DNA of 41,056 nt. It comes from a virus. Below the pieces are notes generated by a model that was given only the letters and a program-made list of their open reading frames with translations, was not told the DNA's origin and ran no database searches. The translations under genes and the position numbers were made by a program. Location of the stretch: UHGV virus genome UHGV-1383708, one strand, 5' to 3'. This document shows, piece after piece, positions 5,332 through 25,359 of this stretch. Numbering within the stretch: the stretch's first letter is position 1; each line of letters opens with the position of its first letter.

Positions 5332-5425
5332 ATTTACATTGCACTCCTCTTGTGCCATAGTAATCGGGCACTGGCAAAATCCAGTGCCGGGATTGGTCTC
5401 CCGGATTACTACAGAGGCACATATG

Positions 5426-5445
5426 CCGCATAAGCGGTTTTTTTA
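5426..5445 (+). terminator. Intrinsic terminator downstream of small LexA-box gene
   Basis: CCGC-ataa-GCGG hairpin followed by TTTTTTT. Confidence 0.5.
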
Positions 5446-5598
5446 TGTGTAAAGCGCACCTATTCTATGGTGGGCTGTGTGGGGGCACCGAAAGGTGCGC
5501 CGGGTTCCTTTGTAGCCGGTAAGACCAACTCTGCACAGTTCACCACCATCTGATTGGTCTCAGCGGTGGTGATTAACCTAACTACAAAGGTGATCGCT

Positions 5599-6291
5599 AT
5601 GAATACCAAACCTTCCATCTTTTCCTTTGAGTCATCCTGCCAGATCCGTATGTTCATGATTGACGGAGAACCTTGGTTTGTCACCAAAGATGTGTGCAAT
5701 GCTTTGAATATTGATGTTACACAAGCGAGAAAACTTGATAAAAAAGGCTGGAACAAAAAGGGGCTGTATTCAATACAGACCCCTGGTGGAATACAAGAAC
5801 TATCCATCGTTTCAGAATCAGGTCTCTACATCCTTATTCTGCGTTGCAAAGAGGCAATGACTGAGGGAACGAGAGCATTCAGATTTCTTGAATGGGTTAC
5901 AGGTGAGGTTCTTCCTCAGATCCGCCGCACCGGAAGTTACATTAAAAACTCGCTCCCGCAGGAAGAACGCATAAAGATGGTTGCCGACCAGGTAGCCAAC
6001 GCCACAGCATCAGCAGTGATGCAGGCAATGAAGGTAGAGAACAAAACCTACAGCGCCCCACTGAAGCCCGGCTACCGCAGCCTGATTCATTCGCCGTCTG
6101 GTGTTCTCGGCCTGACGGAGAACTCACTGCTGATGAATCTGCTGAACCAGTTACAGGAAGACGGGCACGATGTATCGGGCGCGGCGGCGGAGCTGACCAC
6201 CATGTTCTGCTACATCGTCGGTGTGAGCAAATGCCTGCGTGATATCCAGACGCACGCGGAGTACATCAACGACAAAGCAGGGTTCTTCTGA
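5599..6291 (+). CDS. Bro-N domain antirepressor with shared C-terminal domain
   Basis: 230 aa; N-terminus IRMFMIDGEPWFVTKDVCNALNI typical of Bro-N; last 77 aa near-identical to antirepressor 7543-8481. Confidence 0.7.
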   Translation: MNTKPSIFSFESSCQIRMFMIDGEPWFVTKDVCNALNIDVTQARKLDKKGWNKKGLYSIQTPGGIQELSIVSESGLYILILRCKEAMTEGTRAFRFLEWVTGEVLPQIRRTGSYIKNSLPQEERIKMVADQVANATASAVMQAMKVENKTYSAPLKPGYRSLIHSPSGVLGLTENSLLMNLLNQLQEDGHDVSGAAAELTTMFCYIVGVSKCLRDIQTHAEYINDKAGFF

Positions 6292-6376
6292 CGGGCGGCG
6301 GCACAGGGATGTGCCTACAATTATCAATAATTGTTTACACTCGTTGCAGTTAAAAGCATTATACTCATGTTTAAAA

Positions 6377-6412: not shown

Positions 6413-6739
6413 ATGAGCAGAAGATATGTCAAGGAGCTGGCTATAGAGTCTGGCACCCCTTTGGGTATCGTTCCTGGCTCCAACTATGCCAAGGCTTTAA
6501 ACCGAGACTCTGTCGTCAAAGTTATATCAAGAGACATGAATATGGTCGGAGACGATCTCAGACGGTCAGAAAATCGTGTTTATGCTGAATATATAGTAAA
6601 GAACGGAAAAAAAATTGCAGCGCCTGCTGGCGGAAAATGGGCAATAGTGACAGGGAAAAACTCAAATGCAAGAGGAAAACCAGAAGCTAAAGGAATGTCC
6701 TTCGACAAATATGCAAAAATCTATTGGGCAACCAAGTGA
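6413..6739 (+). CDS. Hypothetical basic protein (108 aa), first gene of cargo cassette
   Basis: GAGGT RBS; operator palindrome 22 nt upstream; overlaps next gene in another frame. Confidence 0.45.
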   Translation: MSRRYVKELAIESGTPLGIVPGSNYAKALNRDSVVKVISRDMNMVGDDLRRSENRVYAEYIVKNGKKIAAPAGGKWAIVTGKNSNARGKPEAKGMSFDKYAKIYWATK

Positions 6740-7214
6740 TAACGAAGAAACTGAGTTCGAGGAAGTTGAGGAAGGGCTAAGTAACGAGATCATTCAACAC
6801 CCAGATGCCTTCACAAGAGTTCTTGATCGCCCTGAAATTCAGGAGATAGTTGTCGCTCACCATGCGTTTCAGGGTCCGCTTCCTCCCCCCTATCTGCTTC
6901 GCGGGTATCAGGATATTTTACCTGATGCCCCCGAACGCATCTTCCAGCTGACGGAGAAGGAGTTTGCTCACCGCCAGAAAATGGAGGAAAAGGCACTTGA
7001 CGGGGCTATTAATAGAGATAAACGTGGGCAGTGGTTTGGCCTGAGTGCAACTATTTTTACAGTAGCTTGTGCAACATTATTAGGTTTAACAGGTCATGAA
7101 GTTCTAGCTGGCACAGTGATCGGTACAGTTGTTGCAGTGGCTGGTATTTTCGTTCTTAGACAAAAACCAAGCATCAAGAAGAAATCTGAAGACAACAAAC
7201 CTGAAGAAAAGTAA
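6711..7214 (+). CDS. Acidic N-terminal / two-TM C-terminal protein, DUF2335-like (tentative)
   Basis: LPPPYLLRGYQDILPDAPERIFQLTEKEFAHRQ then hydrophobic hairpin WFGLSATIFTVACATLLGL...VIGTVVAVAGIFVL; start may be 6666. Confidence 0.5.
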   Translation: MQKSIGQPSDNEETEFEEVEEGLSNEIIQHPDAFTRVLDRPEIQEIVVAHHAFQGPLPPPYLLRGYQDILPDAPERIFQLTEKEFAHRQKMEEKALDGAINRDKRGQWFGLSATIFTVACATLLGLTGHEVLAGTVIGTVVAVAGIFVLRQKPSIKKKSEDNKPEEK

Positions 7215-7307: not shown

Positions 7308-7469
7308 ATGAAAAAAGCATTTGCTGCACTGTTCGTTTTGTTGTCTCTGGTAGCTTCAACTCAGGCCTTTGCCGGTCGTTGTCAGCACGACAGCGATACT
7401 GCCGCTGACGGCTCCCGCTGCGGTGGGCGTTCTGCGGATTCCCGCCCTGGCGGCGGTGGCATTCGTTAA
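7308..7469 (+). CDS. Candidate secreted micro-protein (53 aa) with signal peptide
   Basis: MKKAFAALFVLLSLVASTQAFA then Gly/Arg/Asp-rich 31-aa tail with two Cys; no clear RBS. Confidence 0.35.
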   Translation: MKKAFAALFVLLSLVASTQAFAGRCQHDSDTAADGSRCGGRSADSRPGGGGIR

Positions 7470-7475
7470 AAACAA

Positions 7476-7519
7476 GGCCGCGAAAGCGGCCTGTGACATG
7501 TCACGCTAGTTTCGTTTTG
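7476..7519. terminator. Bidirectional intrinsic terminator between convergent units
   Basis: GGCCGC-GAAA-GCGGCC hairpin with T-rich tracts on both sides. Confidence 0.55.
7493..7504. repeat. Perfect 12-bp palindrome GTGACATGTCAC (copy 1)
   Basis: Exact; immediately beside hairpin GGCCGC-gaaa-GCGGCC. Confidence 0.8.
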
Positions 7520-7542
7520 CACGTCCCTGTGCCGCCGTTCTG

Positions 7543-8481
7543 TCAGAAGAACCCTGCCTTGTCGTTGATGTATTCCGCGTGCGTCTGGATATCACGCAGG
7601 CATTTGCTCACACCGACGATGTAGCAGAACATGGTGGTCAGCTCCGCCGCCGCGCCCGATACATCGTGCCCGTCTTCCTGTAACTGGTTCAGCAGATTCA
7701 TCAGCAGTGAGTTCTCCGTCAGGCCGAGAACACCAGACGGCGAATGAATCAGGCTACGGTAGCCGGGCTTCAGTGGATAACCATAACATTTTGTCTGTGT
7801 TTTAATTGCCTCACGAAGCGCATCTAACATCTTGACTGCCACTTCATCATTCTCTGATGCAGATCCAGCAGGGAGATACTCCCCTTCAAGCGGAACCCGA
7901 GCAACAAGAGACAACGCTTCGGCAAATTGATCTTCACCAATTTCTTTGTACGAACAGCCAAAATGAGATTTCAGTGACGACCACATGGTGATCATCGCCT
8001 TAGCCTGTTTTTCTTTTGGCAGAGACTGACCGCGACTCATGACGAGTTGTTTAATGGCTTCCTGCTGTTCAGTTGTTATTTTACCCGGCAACGCCTTTTT
8101 AGCTTTGCGTGGGTTAACCACATGGCCTTTAGTCCAGTACTCGTAGAGCACATCGTCACACTCTTCCTGATACTGGATTACCTTGTCGCGGATTTCAGGG
8201 CGGACTTTGTTAGGGCTGATGCTGTTCAACCAAGCTGCCAATTTTCGTAAAGCCATACAAATCATGGCTTGCACCCCACCGGCAGAAGGTATGGTGATTT
8301 CCACCATACCCTTCGAGAAGCGTTGAGAAATCTTCTTATGTTGAGATTTCCAGTCTAGCCCCATTCCCTCAACGATAGGTTTCATTGGGGTATACGGTTC
8401 GCCGTTGTGATTGACAACATAAAGCTCTGCGCCGTGGAATGGCACGTTGATAGTAGATACTGCTGTTGCTATACTCGTCAT
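7543..8481 (-). CDS. Antirepressor (Ant-type N-terminal region plus shared C-terminal domain)
   Basis: 312 aa; downstream of arc-like gene as in P22 immI; last 77 aa near-identical to C-terminus of gene 5599-6291. Confidence 0.7.
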   Translation of the reverse strand: MTSIATAVSTINVPFHGAELYVVNHNGEPYTPMKPIVEGMGLDWKSQHKKISQRFSKGMVEITIPSAGGVQAMICMALRKLAAWLNSISPNKVRPEIRDKVIQYQEECDDVLYEYWTKGHVVNPRKAKKALPGKITTEQQEAIKQLVMSRGQSLPKEKQAKAMITMWSSLKSHFGCSYKEIGEDQFAEALSLVARVPLEGEYLPAGSASENDEVAVKMLDALREAIKTQTKCYGYPLKPGYRSLIHSPSGVLGLTENSLLMNLLNQLQEDGHDVSGAAAELTTMFCYIVGVSKCLRDIQTHAEYINDKAGFF

Positions 8482-8553
8482 GTCGTTAATTCCTATACGT
8501 AGTTTTACGATACTGAAGCCCTGACGGTCTGGCCACCGTGGGGCTTCGCTGTT
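8482..8553 (+). ncRNA. Candidate sar-like antisense RNA covering the antirepressor translation start
   Basis: Plus-strand TTGATA-N17-TATACT promoter at 8447-8475 inside ant 5' end; hairpin GAAGCCC...GGGCTTC plus T-tract at 8515-8556. Confidence 0.4.
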
Positions 8554-8721
8554 TTATGCCACGCTATTCTTCTCACCAGTGAGTCCATACACTTTCCTCA
8601 GCTGATAGATAATCTCTGTATTGAACTTTCGGCATTCTTTTTCGCCATTTCTTTCAATAGCTAACTTCACATCGTCCGGAAAACGAACTCGTCGTTGACA
8701 CATCTCTTTTGCTTTTTGCAT
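8554..8721 (-). CDS. Arc-like ribbon-helix-helix repressor
   Basis: 55 aa; AAGGAG RBS; RRVRFPDDVKLAIERNGEKECRKFNTEIIYQL resembles P22 Arc; upstream of antirepressor. Confidence 0.7.
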   Translation of the reverse strand: MQKAKEMCQRRVRFPDDVKLAIERNGEKECRKFNTEIIYQLRKVYGLTGEKNSVA

Positions 8722-8841
8722 TTCATATCTCCTTAGCCCCACCGTGGGGCAAAATAATTGTCACACCGTGCGTCATTGATGTCAAGCACACGGTGAGGCA
8801 TACTTCAATCATTGCAAGTAACTCAATATTTGGTGAAGAAC

Positions 8842-9273
8842 ATGAGCAGAGAAGATCCACAACTAAGGATCAGACTTCCCGTCGAAGTAAAAGAAAAAAT
8901 AGAAATTTCTGCAAAAGCCAATAAGCGATCAATGAACGCTGAAATAGTACAACGTCTTGACACCAGTTTTCTGAAAGATATTCATGAAGATGACGTAATT
9001 TCTGCTTATGAAGCAAAAATCATTGCAAACAATGCACGACATGAAATATCAAATATTATTTTCAAAAGAACCTTTAATGAAATTAATAAGAAAATAACAC
9101 TTGGACATACAAGTTTTTATATAAACCTTAATGACCTTGAACTGGAATCACTTGCAGATAATGATTACCAGATCATCTTTGAAAAAACATTTAATAAGCT
9201 CAATGAACTAGGTTACATCATCTGTGAAAACTCATGGGATGCAGATGGTTTTGGAATTGAAATACCTGAATAG
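8842..9273 (+). CDS. Mnt-like ribbon-helix-helix repressor with ~100-aa C-terminal extension
   Basis: MSREDPQLRIRLPVEVKEKIEISAKANKRSMNAEIVQRL resembles P22 Mnt N-terminus; divergent from arc-like gene. Confidence 0.65.
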   Translation: MSREDPQLRIRLPVEVKEKIEISAKANKRSMNAEIVQRLDTSFLKDIHEDDVISAYEAKIIANNARHEISNIIFKRTFNEINKKITLGHTSFYINLNDLELESLADNDYQIIFEKTFNKLNELGYIICENSWDADGFGIEIPE

Positions 9274-9938: not shown

Positions 9939-12900
9939 TCACCGCATCACCGGATCCACCTGGTTTATTAGTGGCGCAATCCAGAACAGGTTATTGCCGG
10001 GTATCAGGGTTCGGACATTATGCACAATACGATCACCGGCATCACCATTCAACACTCCTGCGGTCACATCAATGATGCTATCCGCAAGACCAAATGACGG
10101 TCCGAATAGAGATCCTACGAATCCACGACTGGCATACCTAGACTGTGTGCCAGTGCCAAATAAAGCCCCCAGCCCAACAGCACCACCAGTAGCCTTTTCA
10201 GCCATATTGTTATATTCCATCAATGGCCCAAGAATACCGGATCTATCTATACCCTCAAGCACCAGCTTCTCTGGTGACCAGTCAACATTTTTCCCTTTCG
10301 ATGCTTCTTTAAGCGCATAGACCAGTGAGCCAAGAGCAATCTGAAATGCAGTGCCATAATAAAATTGCGCAGTTCCTTCCTGTAACCCACCAAGTAGCGC
10401 ACGGTTGTATGAAGCCGTTGTGAATGATTTAAACTGAAATATCGTTCGCCCCATTGGAGTACTCGCCCATAAAGGTGTGTCACCAATACCGGGGGTAATG
10501 ATAGTGTTATTAACGTCTTTCAGAACCGCTGACTGGAATACTCCGGCAACGTACTGATCGTCCCATTTATCAAAGTTACCAATGTGCCATCCATCAATTA
10601 CCTCACCATGTTTCTCGAACTCACTGCGAATACGCGCAGCCATATTGTCGTTGATACCGAGTTTTGCCATGCGACGTGCAGAAAACGCACCAGACAAAAT
10701 ACCGTCTGACGTGAGCATTCCGTTCATGGATTTGTTTATGTCATTAAATCGATCCATGAGTGTCAGCTTGCCGAAGGCATCAGTAATTCGCTCCATTCCT
10801 GCTTCGACTGCTGTTGTCCTGGAAGAACTGTCAACAAGATCACCAATTGCACGAGAACGTGAATGTAGTACAGTTTCCAATCCAATCCCCATCTTCAACA
10901 TCTCTTCTTTGCTGGCCTTAAATGCCGGTGATTGGGATATCTGAGAAGCATAGCCTTTCATGGAGTTACGGAAACCATTAACCATAACCCCTCTGGCCAG
11001 ATCTGGAATAGCTGATACTGTCATTCCACCGAGTTTTGTCGTGAAGTTCACATCCCGCAGAAAAGCGCCAGCACGAACAAAAAACGAAGACGGGTCATCA
11101 GGCATACCATATGTACCAACAAGACGATCGCGTAATGCTGTTATGTCTCTGAGATCATTTGCTCTTGATTTTGAAAGTCTGGACTGTTCTTTCCGTAATT
11201 CCTTTTCGTACTTTCGCATTAATGAATCGAGTTTACCCTGAGGAACAACTTCACCATTGCTCTCATAACGTGCTTTCAGATTTGCCACACTTTCGTCATA
11301 TTTTGCCTTTATTTTTTCAGGCACTTCCCGTAACAGACTGTCATATTCGTCCTCAATTAATTGCAGACGCTCTGTCATAGTTCGTTTGCCAAATGTTCTC
11401 GTCAACTCAATTTCTGCTGCCGCTTCACGGATATGACGTTGTAGAACGTAATTCACATCACTTTCGAGATAATCCCTGATAAGACTATCAGGCACATTTA
11501 ATGTTCTTTCTTTCGTACTACCTGCGGCTTTTACAGAAAATACGCTGACAAAATCCTGTGGAACCTTAGCACCAGTAATTTTATTAATTACGATATCCGC
11601 TGCAATTTCAGCATCCTCAGGATCCAGTGTTTTATTGCCTCTCGACCACCAGTCAACCAAAATACGTCGAAATTTATCGCGTTCACTGATTATTTTTCCA
11701 ACTTTATATATACGTGGGAAATAGCTTGCCTGGCCTAATGCTTTCAGTTCTTCATCTGGCGGCAATAAACCAAGCTTTTGCATTTCAACCTTCACCCGAT
11801 TTAATACAGTTCGCATCGCCTGCGCCGTTTCCTGAACAACAGGATTAGCATGCACATCACCGCTTCGCATAGCATTCCCAACCTGCTGACGAAATGAATC
11901 AAAACTCATGTCACCACCATCAGCTTTATACTTTGCGTATGCCTGTTTATTTCCGACAACAACAGCAGCTTCTTCACGCTGCCATCCACGTGTACGGGTT
12001 TCTACAGCTACCGGTGTTTCAATCCCCCTTTCATTTCCTTTAAGGGTGAAATTATTTTCGGCTAACTCCAGCGTTGTTTTTCGCACTGTCTTGGACGGAG
12101 ACTCCATTAACCTTGTCAAAGGAGTAAGATAGCTCCCTGCTTTCCATGCAGCCTTTCCAACCACCCCACCGGAAACAGGGGTTAAATCATCCAGAGTCGC
12201 TGTATCAATTTTCATAGCACCAACACTACCACCATCAGAAAGCGAAGCGGCAGCCCTGTCAGTCGCTGATGTAATGCTCATATTATCAAGAGCATCAGCA
12301 ACCTCACGCGTGGCTGCAGCCCGGACGGATGGCGAAAGCGCAACACCAGCACTGGCAAACACGCCGCTCATCATCGCACCCGCTGCAATGTGAGCGGCAC
12401 TTTCACCCCATGAGCGTGTTATTTGCTGATTATTCAGCACAACCTCGCTTAATGCTGTACCGGCTGCACCAATCGCAATCTGTGAGCCAATACGCGCCAG
12501 TGCCCCTCCTTGAGCACCGGGGATAAACATTGACGCAACAGTAACCGGATCCATTCCCGCAGCAATACTGGCAAGGGTTCCAACTACGCCAGCATCAGAC
12601 AATAAACGTCTGTCTTCATTTTCATCATCTATCTGCTGCTTAATCCACGCCGTTTCCTCTGGCGATCGGGAATCTGCAAATTTCGCCCCCCAGTATTCAT
12701 AACCGTGCAACTCATTTTTATCAGCATATGGGTTATAACCTTCGACCGGTTCAAACTGTCTGGCTGGTCGGAAAAAACCAGCCAGAATATTGTTCTGTCG
12801 CATTGCAGCCCCCCATACGGAAGGCTCCGGTGGCAATGGCTCAGGATTAGCCCCTTCCGGAAGGGCAACATCAAACCCAGTTTGTTCCGGCAAAACATTA

Positions 12901-12953
12901 CCTGACGGGATCAGTCCGTTATTAAGATCTTCAGCTTGTGCATAAACTGGCAT
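9939..12953 (-). CDS. Large internal virion/ejection protein (1004 aa)
   Basis: Last gene of structural block; start abuts upstream stop. Confidence 0.6.
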   Translation of the reverse strand: MPVYAQAEDLNNGLIPSGNVLPEQTGFDVALPEGANPEPLPPEPSVWGAAMRQNNILAGFFRPARQFEPVEGYNPYADKNELHGYEYWGAKFADSRSPEETAWIKQQIDDENEDRRLLSDAGVVGTLASIAAGMDPVTVASMFIPGAQGGALARIGSQIAIGAAGTALSEVVLNNQQITRSWGESAAHIAAGAMMSGVFASAGVALSPSVRAAATREVADALDNMSITSATDRAAASLSDGGSVGAMKIDTATLDDLTPVSGGVVGKAAWKAGSYLTPLTRLMESPSKTVRKTTLELAENNFTLKGNERGIETPVAVETRTRGWQREEAAVVVGNKQAYAKYKADGGDMSFDSFRQQVGNAMRSGDVHANPVVQETAQAMRTVLNRVKVEMQKLGLLPPDEELKALGQASYFPRIYKVGKIISERDKFRRILVDWWSRGNKTLDPEDAEIAADIVINKITGAKVPQDFVSVFSVKAAGSTKERTLNVPDSLIRDYLESDVNYVLQRHIREAAAEIELTRTFGKRTMTERLQLIEDEYDSLLREVPEKIKAKYDESVANLKARYESNGEVVPQGKLDSLMRKYEKELRKEQSRLSKSRANDLRDITALRDRLVGTYGMPDDPSSFFVRAGAFLRDVNFTTKLGGMTVSAIPDLARGVMVNGFRNSMKGYASQISQSPAFKASKEEMLKMGIGLETVLHSRSRAIGDLVDSSSRTTAVEAGMERITDAFGKLTLMDRFNDINKSMNGMLTSDGILSGAFSARRMAKLGINDNMAARIRSEFEKHGEVIDGWHIGNFDKWDDQYVAGVFQSAVLKDVNNTIITPGIGDTPLWASTPMGRTIFQFKSFTTASYNRALLGGLQEGTAQFYYGTAFQIALGSLVYALKEASKGKNVDWSPEKLVLEGIDRSGILGPLMEYNNMAEKATGGAVGLGALFGTGTQSRYASRGFVGSLFGPSFGLADSIIDVTAGVLNGDAGDRIVHNVRTLIPGNNLFWIAPLINQVDPVMR

Positions 12954-15670
12954 TATTTAGATCCCCACGAAAAGTAATCTTTAAATTTGTCCATACGTTC
13001 GTTATGCAGGCGCTGATACTGCTCATCCAGAGCGCGATGCTTGTCTTTGAAGTTTCGTATAGCCTGTCCACGCATAATTTCTTCCTGCTCGTACTGCTCC
13101 CGTTCCTGCTGCATTTTCTTATAAGGTTCCCAATCTTCTAGTGATGGTTCCCAACGCATAGGACGCCCATGTTTGTTATAAAACGGCTGGACCCGATCGA
13201 TGCCATTTTCATCCTTAGTTCTTACCATAATGGCGTAATCACCATTACGAGGTGTTAACACGTCAGGGGTTATGAATAATTCTCCATTAATACGACTCTC
13301 AGGGGTTTTTGTCTCAACTACAGGAGCATTACCTGACGTGATCCCAAGCAACGTCGGACTGGTTGTTATAATCTCTTTGCGCTCACCGTACATCAGCCGT
13401 TCTTTTTCAGCTTTCCACTGCGCCGCCTGCCAGCCTGACGGCCCATATTGATAAAGCGCCTCCGGTGCATATTTCATAAACTGCGCTTCTCCGTTAACCT
13501 CGCTGATACTCCAGGTGCGGGCTATCTGCTGGTTGGTCATTTGCTTCGCTACGTCAGCGTTACCACCAGCAACGCGGTAGTTAATGTCATACAGCGTCTG
13601 ATAGTCATTACGGAATCTAGCTGCTTCCGGCGTCTGGTCATCCGCAGACGGATCCCAACGGAACCACTGCGCCATATTGCTGACAGCAGAATTCATCGCC
13701 TTGCTGCGATTATTTTTGTACTCTTTTGAACTCTGCGTTGATGCCAATTGAGCTTTAAGAGCATCGGTCTGGTTGTACGTCAGGTTCTGCGCCTGCTCGA
13801 TAGCCGCATCAGCAGACATGCCAGAATCTGTTAGTTGCTTAACAGTCAGATAAAAACCCTGCATATCCTTCGGCATATTTCCAATAGATGCATTGTCTGT
13901 TTCATATAACCGACTAAACAAATTCGCTGCATTTTTAACCACTTCCTGATTGCTGGATCTGGATACTGCTGAAAGCTGCGTGATGACCTGCGAAGGCATG
14001 ATGCCAGTCTGAGCCACAAGCCGAACAACCCCATCATGAGTGGAGGCATCATTAATACGAAAGTTCTGCGCCATTTCTGTGTAATCAGCAGCTTTCTGCA
14101 TTGATTTGTTGCTTGGGTCTAATTTTTCACCTATTGTCAGCGCCTCATTGAATCTGCGTGAATCACGTTGCGCCTGAATTGCTTCATTTGATCGCTGAAG
14201 CAATGCAGACAATTTTCCGTAAGCATCGAGTTTTAACGCATAGTGAGGATCGTTAACCTCAGGCTTCACTTTCTGCATTTCTTCTTGCTGCTGAGAAGGA
14301 GGTAAATACTGAATTGCCTGGAATATTCTCGCGTTATCAATCGCTATATCCAGTTGATTGATTATTTTATCTGCATTTTTTCCATACCCCCTGATGATAG
14401 TCTCCTGAGCCGGTATATAATCTGGAACCTCACCGTTATATAGCTGGGCCATGGTGTTATTAATAGCTGGCTCAAGCTGTTCTAATATTAACTTCCTTTG
14501 CTTTTCTATCTGACTATTAGCAAGGTTATCTATTTGATAAATAGTCAGCGGATCCATTCCAGTTTTATTTTTTCTATATCGGGAAAGCCACCCTTGTGTT
14601 TCTGATGGAAGATTTCGGATAAATTCTTCTTCTGATATTTCACCTTTACGTGGATCACCGACTTTGGCGATCAGTTTATCCACGTTACCCATCCCCCAGT
14701 TATATGCTGCTCCGGTCAATATTTCGGAGCCGTACTTACCATACAGTTGATTTACATAGTCACTGGCGAGCATTTCATGCTGTTGTTCGTCCGTAGGGTT
14801 GTATTTAACGCCACGCTTGGCCGCCAGTTCTTTCCCTGTGCCCGGCATTAACTGGTATTTCCCCTGGGCTCTCTCTCCAGAAGATGTTATCGGTCCTTCA
14901 AGAAGACTACCATCAGGATTAAAATGTCGATCACCTGATTCAACAAGGCGTATGGCACGCATGTCCATGCCTCCAGAATCATTTTTCTGAAACAGACCAT
15001 TTAGCCATCCTTCTGGATTGGCAGCGGCATAATTCTTCGCCCGCATTTCTGTGGCACGGCGATCATCACTTTCTATTTCTTCCAGAATGCGTTCTTGTGA
15101 CCATCCCCTGGCAGCTCCATATCTGGCAATGGCTACCATTCTGGAATTTCTGGCTAAAGTGGCAGTTTGCGGGTCATTCCAGGCATCCGCTTCATTTTGT
15201 ATCCATAATTTTCTCGTTGCCTGATATTGCTCATCTTCATAGGCATTTGTCTGCCCTATCTCATGTCTGAGAACTCCAGTACTGAACTGAATTTTCTGTG
15301 TTCTGGCTTGTTGCAAAAACATATTTCTTGCTGCTTCATCAGTCAATGAAGCAGCTATTTCTTCCACATCCTGATCAAATCCAGATATGTACTCTTGCCC
15401 CTTACCAATCGCATTTTTGCCTTGTTGTGCATAAAAACCGGTTTGAGGGTTATAAAGACGTTCATTGCTGCGCTGATTAAGCTGAAGGATGGCATCCTGA
15501 GACAATGCAACATTCGCTTTCTGCCTGGCTTCACCATATGCCACCGCATACTGATCTGCGACATTCGCCAGCACCTGACCTGCTTGAGGAACATCGAAGG
15601 TCTGAAAACCACCGGTTTGCACACCACGACTTTGCACCTGGCGTCCGGATACTGTTGGTACGACTGGCAT
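12953..15670 (-). CDS. Internal virion/ejection protein with lytic transglycosylase (SLT) domain
   Basis: 905 aa from ATG 15670; motif ERAQGKYQLMPGTGKELAAKRGV ... AAYNWGMGNV typical of SLT domains. Confidence 0.75.
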   Translation of the reverse strand: MPVVPTVSGRQVQSRGVQTGGFQTFDVPQAGQVLANVADQYAVAYGEARQKANVALSQDAILQLNQRSNERLYNPQTGFYAQQGKNAIGKGQEYISGFDQDVEEIAASLTDEAARNMFLQQARTQKIQFSTGVLRHEIGQTNAYEDEQYQATRKLWIQNEADAWNDPQTATLARNSRMVAIARYGAARGWSQERILEEIESDDRRATEMRAKNYAAANPEGWLNGLFQKNDSGGMDMRAIRLVESGDRHFNPDGSLLEGPITSSGERAQGKYQLMPGTGKELAAKRGVKYNPTDEQQHEMLASDYVNQLYGKYGSEILTGAAYNWGMGNVDKLIAKVGDPRKGEISEEEFIRNLPSETQGWLSRYRKNKTGMDPLTIYQIDNLANSQIEKQRKLILEQLEPAINNTMAQLYNGEVPDYIPAQETIIRGYGKNADKIINQLDIAIDNARIFQAIQYLPPSQQQEEMQKVKPEVNDPHYALKLDAYGKLSALLQRSNEAIQAQRDSRRFNEALTIGEKLDPSNKSMQKAADYTEMAQNFRINDASTHDGVVRLVAQTGIMPSQVITQLSAVSRSSNQEVVKNAANLFSRLYETDNASIGNMPKDMQGFYLTVKQLTDSGMSADAAIEQAQNLTYNQTDALKAQLASTQSSKEYKNNRSKAMNSAVSNMAQWFRWDPSADDQTPEAARFRNDYQTLYDINYRVAGGNADVAKQMTNQQIARTWSISEVNGEAQFMKYAPEALYQYGPSGWQAAQWKAEKERLMYGERKEIITTSPTLLGITSGNAPVVETKTPESRINGELFITPDVLTPRNGDYAIMVRTKDENGIDRVQPFYNKHGRPMRWEPSLEDWEPYKKMQQEREQYEQEEIMRGQAIRNFKDKHRALDEQYQRLHNERMDKFKDYFSWGSK

Positions 15671-25282: not shown

Positions 25283-25359
25283 TGTGGCATTAGCTCAGTT
25301 GGACAGAGCAACCGCCTTCTAAGCGGTTGGTCGCAGGTTCGAATCCTGCATGCCACGCC
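25283..25359 (+). tRNA. tRNA-Arg (anticodon UCU), argU-like
   Basis: 77 nt; 7-bp acceptor stem GTGGCAT/ATGCCAC; anticodon stem ACCGC/GCGGT with loop CTTCTAA; T-loop TTCGAAT; encoded 3' CCA. Confidence 0.85.

Follow-up and report, generated by a model that had tools for sequence, protein, structure and literature searches.

The segment 8447–8556 of the window (here, the whole 41,056-nt stretch of viral DNA that was analyzed) very probably encodes a homolog of sar, the antisense RNA of phage P22 (probability about 0.9). The predicted RNA, ~72 nt long, would act against translation of the antirepressor gene ant and lies beside genes for two ribbon-helix-helix (RHH) repressors. Its sequence features place it in the sar family, and its conservation and the covariation of its stem are evident among relatives. 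P22 sar (Liao et al., 1987; Wu et al., 1987; Schaefer & McClure, 1997; as cited in PMC2629481 and PMC13397905) base-pairs with the ant mRNA and prevents its translation, according to Table 3 of PMC13397905, citing Liao et al., 1987.

A P22-type immI module in a prophage related to phiV10

The window is a TL-2011b-like E. coli prophage (84% coverage, 97.5% identity) and is related to phiV10 (genus Uetakevirus); in E. coli 2015C-4498 the prophage adjoins yfgI. A tRNA gene lies inside it at 25284–25357 (+; Rfam tRNA, 73.3 bits). At least 38 of the 5426 complete E. coli genomes contain the 421-bp control region at 97–100% identity. Among phage records, only TL-2011b carries the full module, and phiV10 is not among the phage records that match it.

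The antirepressor gene ant occupies 7543..8481 on the minus strand and encodes 312 amino acids, with an ATG at 8481..8479 and a Shine-Dalgarno sequence, AGGAA, at 8494..8490. Its product matches Pfam P22_AR_N (PF10547, E = 5.9e-45) as well as the PHROG family anti-repressor Ant (E = 8e-77); its identity to P22 Ant is 39% across 217 residues. PGAP starts the gene at GTG 8445 (a 903-nt CDS), 36 nt downstream of ATG 8481, and so loses the 12 N-terminal codons that contain the Psar-like promoter described below. We favor ATG 8481 because the alignment with P22 Ant begins at residue 1 and because the Shine-Dalgarno sequence precedes this codon. Just downstream of ant, a scan picked up a terminator-like hairpin with a T-run (7475..7492, −); the P22 ant terminator is annotated at the same relative place.

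An arc-like gene of 55 codons (8554..8721, −; Shine-Dalgarno AAGGAG at 8734..8729) lies immediately upstream of ant in the same operon. Its product is 33% identical to P22 Arc (BLASTP, E = 4e-5), matches PHROG 228, 'Arc-like repressor' (E = 3.4e-5), and aligns with the RHH invariants R13, P15, R31, N34, and E36; searches of Pfam and NCBIfam returned no match for it. These similarities tentatively point to an Arc RHH repressor. Divergent from arc-ant, a mnt-like gene (8842..9273, +) encodes a 143-residue protein with an N-terminal RHH, which matches the Pfam Arc domain (E = 1.1e-14) and, over its full length, phrog_1388. This protein is 32% identical to P22 Mnt (E = 3e-14) but differs from it in its C-terminal part, which is longer, unrelated, and not alignable.

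The original prediction held that the sar-like RNA completes a P22-type immI set, and the genes of the region support this: an Ant with P22_AR_N, a 55-residue Arc-like RHH protein, and a Mnt-like RHH protein. As in P22 immI, or the 'ant moron' (PMC2629481), mnt is divergent from arc-ant, Ant carries P22_AR_N, the repressors are RHH proteins, and a terminator follows ant; the mnt / arc-ant gene order around sar is that of P22. The module is likewise inserted among late genes and co-oriented with them, arc-ant running in the same direction as the upstream virion genes (9939..12953 and beyond, −).

A Psar-like promoter within the first codons of ant

Codons 3–12 of the minus-strand ant gene hold a candidate promoter on the plus strand. 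It comprises a −35 element TTGATA (8447–8452), a 17-nt spacer, and a −10 element TATACT (8470–8475), precisely the site that had been proposed within the first ant codons. The promoter scan classed it as a sigma-70 type with 10 of 12 consensus matches and an extended −10, the spacer ending in TGC with the TG at 8467–8468. Such a match is by itself at chance level, since 4.1 promoter-like sites are expected by chance in the 2.5 kb scanned and 4 were found; its significance lies in position and conservation, not in the consensus match itself.

The position is that of P22 Psar. In the P22 record, sar is annotated at 15021–15090, Psar at 15097–15125, and the start of ant at 15091; in both phages the promoter falls within the first ant codons, with +7 of ant as the last base of the −10 and −1 of ant as the annotated or predicted start of the RNA. 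The −10 region, TTGCTATACT, is identical to that of P22. The −35 differs: TTGATA matches the consensus at 5 of 6 positions and is better than the GTGTTA annotated in P22.

Conservation was assessed in two sets. Searching viral contigs for the terminator core yielded 120 loci with 74 distinct sar-like sequences; adding relatives found through the arc-like protein yielded 59 distinct promoter segments. Among the latter, a TANNNT hexamer is present in 57 of 59, exactly 3 nt from the ant start codon in 55, and preceded by TG in 44. Because this register is held through extensive coding change, the Ant N-termini of the 59 relatives comprising 35 different peptides, the promoter is under selection.

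The predicted RNA is a divergent member of the sar family

The Rfam sar model RF00262 matches 8483–8550 (+) over its entire length (model positions 1–68 of 68) with 44.8 bits, 1.8 bits above the gathering score of 43; the E-value is 4.8e-6 for the whole window and 7e-8 locally. P22 sar, used as a positive control, scores 97.8 bits. By sequence, the window copy is thus a divergent member at the edge of the RF00262 family. Placed in the P22 register, the predicted transcript spans 8482..8553 (+): its 5′ end would be G8482, as deduced from P22, and its 3′ end would fall within the T-run 8552–8555.

RNAfold predicts that this RNA forms two hairpins followed by a U-tract. Stem-loop 1 (8482..8511) has an outer stem GUCGU/ACGAU and carries the anti-Shine-Dalgarno sequence UUCCU at 8490–8494. 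Stem-loop 2 (8514..8556), the homolog of the P22 sar terminator, consists of a G+C-rich hairpin at 8514–8548, with the core GAAGCCC (8515–8521) / GGGCTTC (8541–8547), and then GCUGUUUUA, whose T-run overlaps the stop codon of the arc-like gene. The expected hairpin and T-tract are therefore in place, but a simple terminator scan did not list them, owing to a bulge in the stem and an inner helix. The fold of the whole RNA is moderately more stable than those of shuffled sequences (z = −2.35, with 4 of 200 shuffles as stable), and hairpin 1 is weak (−3.0 kcal/mol, z = −0.3). The 5′ UTR of ant is perfectly complementary to the ~8482–~8553 transcript, including the arc stop codon (8556..8554) and the Shine-Dalgarno AGGAA, so that the predicted complementarity to the ant ribosome-binding site is complete.

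The resemblance to P22 sar extends through the whole element. Both have two stem-loops with the anti-Shine-Dalgarno motif in the first, a size of ~70 nt, and a span from −1 of ant to the arc stop codon, which the terminator overlaps; the alignment retains TTGCTATACT, CATG, and GAAGCCCTGAC...GGGGCTTC, and the terminator over the stop codon takes the form GAAGCCCUGAC...GGGGCUUC in both. Beyond the lower Rfam score (44.8 versus 97.8 bits), the window copy differs in the hairpin 1 stem, which is GUUGGU/ACUGAC in P22, and in the inner helix and loop of the terminator, where compensatory changes convert the ACUGU/GCAGU of P22 into ACGGU/ACCGU. Its −35 is nearer consensus and its U-tract is better than the AACUUUA of P22. 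The carriers differ as well, P22 sar residing in a Lederbergvirus and this copy in an ε15/phiV10-type podophage (Uetakevirus-like, judged by similarity to phiV10).

Hairpin 1 varies in sequence but persists in structure. A MAFFT alignment of the 74 sar variants analyzed with RNAalifold recovered only the terminator helix as a consensus because hairpin 1 was misaligned; we therefore folded the variants individually. Each of the 39 distinct hairpin-1 variants has a 5′ stem-loop, which begins at nt 1 in 38 cases, and the stems are as different as GUCGU/ACGAU, GUUGGU/ACUGAC, GUCAAUA/UGUUGAU, GCUAG/CUGGC, and GUCUUUU/GGGGGAC. An anti-Shine-Dalgarno-like motif is present at nt 7–10 of the RNA, on the 5′ side of the hairpin, in every one of the 39. 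The window copy, at −3.0 kcal/mol, is the weakest. Together with the full-length RF00262 match, the identity of register, the two-hairpin fold, and the conservation of the promoter, the covariation in hairpin 1 upholds the likeness to P22 Sar that had been suggested.

Sar homologs recognized by position at five loci (L124, L155, L184, L144, and L158) fall below the RF00262 gathering score. The Rfam sar model is narrow and under-detects the family; because these clear homologs lie below its threshold, annotation that relies on Rfam understates how widespread sar is. No sar RNA is listed in the RefSeq record of TL-2011b, nor does PGAP annotate one in the identical E. coli prophages.

The terminator hairpin (8514–8548) is also a mosaic junction: downstream of it, on the arc side, at least eight unrelated sequences occur. 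The homology of phage CUS-3 to the window ends at ~8547, the position of 'bsq2; boundary sequence' in the CUS-3 annotation.

Three similar operator-like sites over divergent promoters

Upstream of the arc-like gene, a Pant-like promoter on the minus strand (8757..8785) comprises TTGACA (8785..8780), a 17-nt spacer, and GACAAT (8762..8757); it has 10 of 12 consensus matches with a TG present and aligns with P22 Pant. On the opposite strand we read, by eye, a weak putative Pmnt (8776..8804, +; TTGATG, 17-nt spacer, CATACT; 8 of 12 matches). It is below the threshold of the promoter scan; the corresponding sequence in relatives is TTGCTG-17-CATAAT. The overlap of Pant with the putative Pmnt is confined to their −35 regions, whereas that of the two P22 promoters is almost complete.

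Three CAC-S-GTG-centered sites, spaced 24 and 25 bp apart, cover this region. O1 (8736..8750) is a perfect palindrome, GCCCCAC-C-GTGGGGC (GCCCCACCGTGGGGC), located directly downstream of the Pant −10 at about +1 to +15 of the predicted Pant transcript. It is conserved in relatives and aligns with the annotated P22 mnt operator, AGGTCCACCGTGGACCT, which occupies the same place relative to the Pant −10. O2 (8760..8774), centered on CACCGTG, lies in the spacer and −10 of Pant, and its core TCACACCGTGCGT is identical in 31 of 31 relatives. O3 (8785..8799), centered on CACGGTG, lies in the spacer of the putative Pmnt and is a perfect CCCCAC-S-GTGGGG in most relatives. The array as a whole is kept in 31 distinct relatives whose arc-like proteins are 62–100% identical, and 4 of the 8 CACSGTG motifs in the 41-kb window fall within 262 bp.

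O2 sits where P22 has its arc operator. An arc operator of the P22 sequence type (ATGATAGAAGCACTCTACTAT) was not found between the Pant −35 and −10, the CACCGTG-centered site at 8760–8774 being there instead. Judged from sequence, the position of the arc operator is conserved and its specificity is different from that in P22. P22 has one mnt operator and one dissimilar arc operator, whereas the module described here has three similar CAC-S-GTG sites. The RHH proteins differ as well: β-strand positions 9, 11, and 13 read Q-R-R in both the Arc-like and the Mnt-like protein, as against Q-N-R in P22 Arc and H-N-R in P22 Mnt. This common Q-R-R fits the likeness of the three sites.

The palindrome copy in the sar terminator is probably coincidental

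The original prediction noted a recurring CACCGTG-containing palindrome as a possible Arc/Mnt operator. The 12-mer CCACCGTGGGGC does occur at 8533–8544, but its second occurrence is at 8739–8750 rather than 8746–8757, within O1. The operator assignment is supported for the palindrome at 8736–8750, a member of the conserved three-site array and the counterpart of the P22 mnt operator in the alignment; it does not extend to the copy at 8533..8544, which forms the 3′ arm of the sar terminator stem, is not conserved with the repressor family, and is probably not an operator.

We nevertheless weighed whether the hairpin of the terminator might also act as a fourth operator, bound by the Arc-like or the Mnt-like repressor. 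The 12-nt repeat of the O1 core is exact, with 0.10 matches expected by chance in the window at up to one mismatch, and half of the CACSGTG motifs cluster in this region. To compare operator and hairpin, we used 63 loci encoding arc-like relatives and then scanned for the hairpin allele and its accompanying arc genes. Relatives with the same arc/operator family often have ordinary sar hairpins that lack the motif, and, conversely, the hairpin allele ACGGTCTG(G/A)CCACCGT(T)GGGC also adjoins unrelated arc families at L197, L212, L231, L247, and L288, where CACSGTG sites are absent from the 420 nt beyond the hairpin. Moreover, the universal sar stem already dictates GGGGC, 5 of the 12 bases. We consider a fourth operator very unlikely: the motif does not track the repressor family, and an operator in the terminator was rejected as the main reading. 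A co-variation of the central base between hairpin and O1, seen in CFSAN018748 (T in both), fails in other lineages, as at L158, where O1 has G and the hairpin reads CACTGC. The repeat in the terminator is thus probably a coincidence of the hairpin allele. Were a fourth operator real, the same 12 bases would serve as RNA stem and repressor site, and control at the DNA level could include looping of the arc-ant junction to Pant/O1, 206 bp away.

Proposed mechanism and alternatives

By analogy with P22, an extended −10 sigma-70 promoter in the first ant codons would fire against the direction of ant and produce an RNA of ~72 nt, which would start one base upstream of the ant ATG and end at the hairpin and U-tract over the arc stop codon. 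This sar RNA would pair with the ant mRNA across the ribosome-binding site and thereby block translation of the antirepressor. Its target message may come from Pant or by read-through from the upstream late genes on the same strand: as arc-ant is co-oriented with the virion genes, late read-through transcripts could carry ant, for sar to silence. The Arc-like and Mnt-like repressors presumably bind the three-site CAC-S-GTG array over the divergent Pant and Pmnt.

Two other readings accept the homology or the promoter and give the RNA no role or a secondary one. The element could be a decayed relic, its homology real but its promoter or RNA non-functional, with ant under Arc-like/Mnt-like control only; an Rfam score barely over the threshold and the weakest hairpin 1 of the 39 variants speak for this reading. 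This is very unlikely, as the −35 TTGATA beats that of P22, both the extended −10 and the terminator stem are intact, the stem with compensatory changes relative to P22, and the element is 97–100% conserved in at least 38 E. coli genomes. Alternatively, the main effect of the plus-strand promoter might be transcriptional interference, in which polymerases from Pant or late promoters are occluded or met by collision, with RNA–RNA pairing secondary. The geometry is convergent and Psar is only ~270 bp downstream of Pant, but an anti-Shine-Dalgarno-like motif at nt 7–10 in 39 of 39 hairpin-1 variants, combined with covarying stems, is expected of a functional RNA rather than of a mere promoter. 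With P22 sar itself reported to base-pair with the ant mRNA and prevent its translation (PMC13397905, Table 3), we regard interference as very unlikely too, and favor a sar RNA that acts on ant translation.

A second RNA-controlled antirepressor module in the same prophage

Another antirepressor module with RNA control lies 3 kb away. It comprises isrK (5368–5444, +; Rfam, 74.7 bits) and the C4 antisense RNA (5463–5550, +; RF01695, 78.6 bits), both directly upstream of a Bro-N / Ant-like ORF (5554/5599–6291, +) that matches the PHROG anti-repressor Ant (E = 4e-51). P1/P7-style and P22-style ant control units thus face each other in the prophage, and the same pair is present in TL-2011b. The C4 RNA of P1/P7 resembles sar in being a small phage RNA that keeps an antirepressor silent. 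C4 arises by processing of the very transcript that carries its target, and it acts at upstream sites, whereas sar has a promoter of its own and is a cis-antisense RNA made convergently; they have no sequence or structure in common.

The C-terminal ~90 codons are common to both of the convergent antirepressor genes (PHROGs 450 and 15539), and a 270-nt inverted repeat, 93% complementary, connects 6023–6292 with 7542–7811. The shared C-termini suggest a common effector/target-binding domain or recent gene conversion. Two ORFs lie between these genes. The smaller (7309–7469, +) has a signal-peptide-like N-terminus (MKKAFAALFVLLSLVASTQAFAG...), and the other (6666–7214, +; 182 aa) appears in the annotation of a related genome as DUF2335, frameshifted.

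Significance

The sar element described here has escaped annotation; it is a divergent representative of a well-known RNA family, in a phage genus other than that of P22, and not a new kind of system. Its value is mainly one of annotation, and its mechanism would hold no surprise. It also shows that the P22-type immunity I switch, complete with its predicted antisense RNA, has been transferred as one unit to an ε15/phiV10-type podophage.
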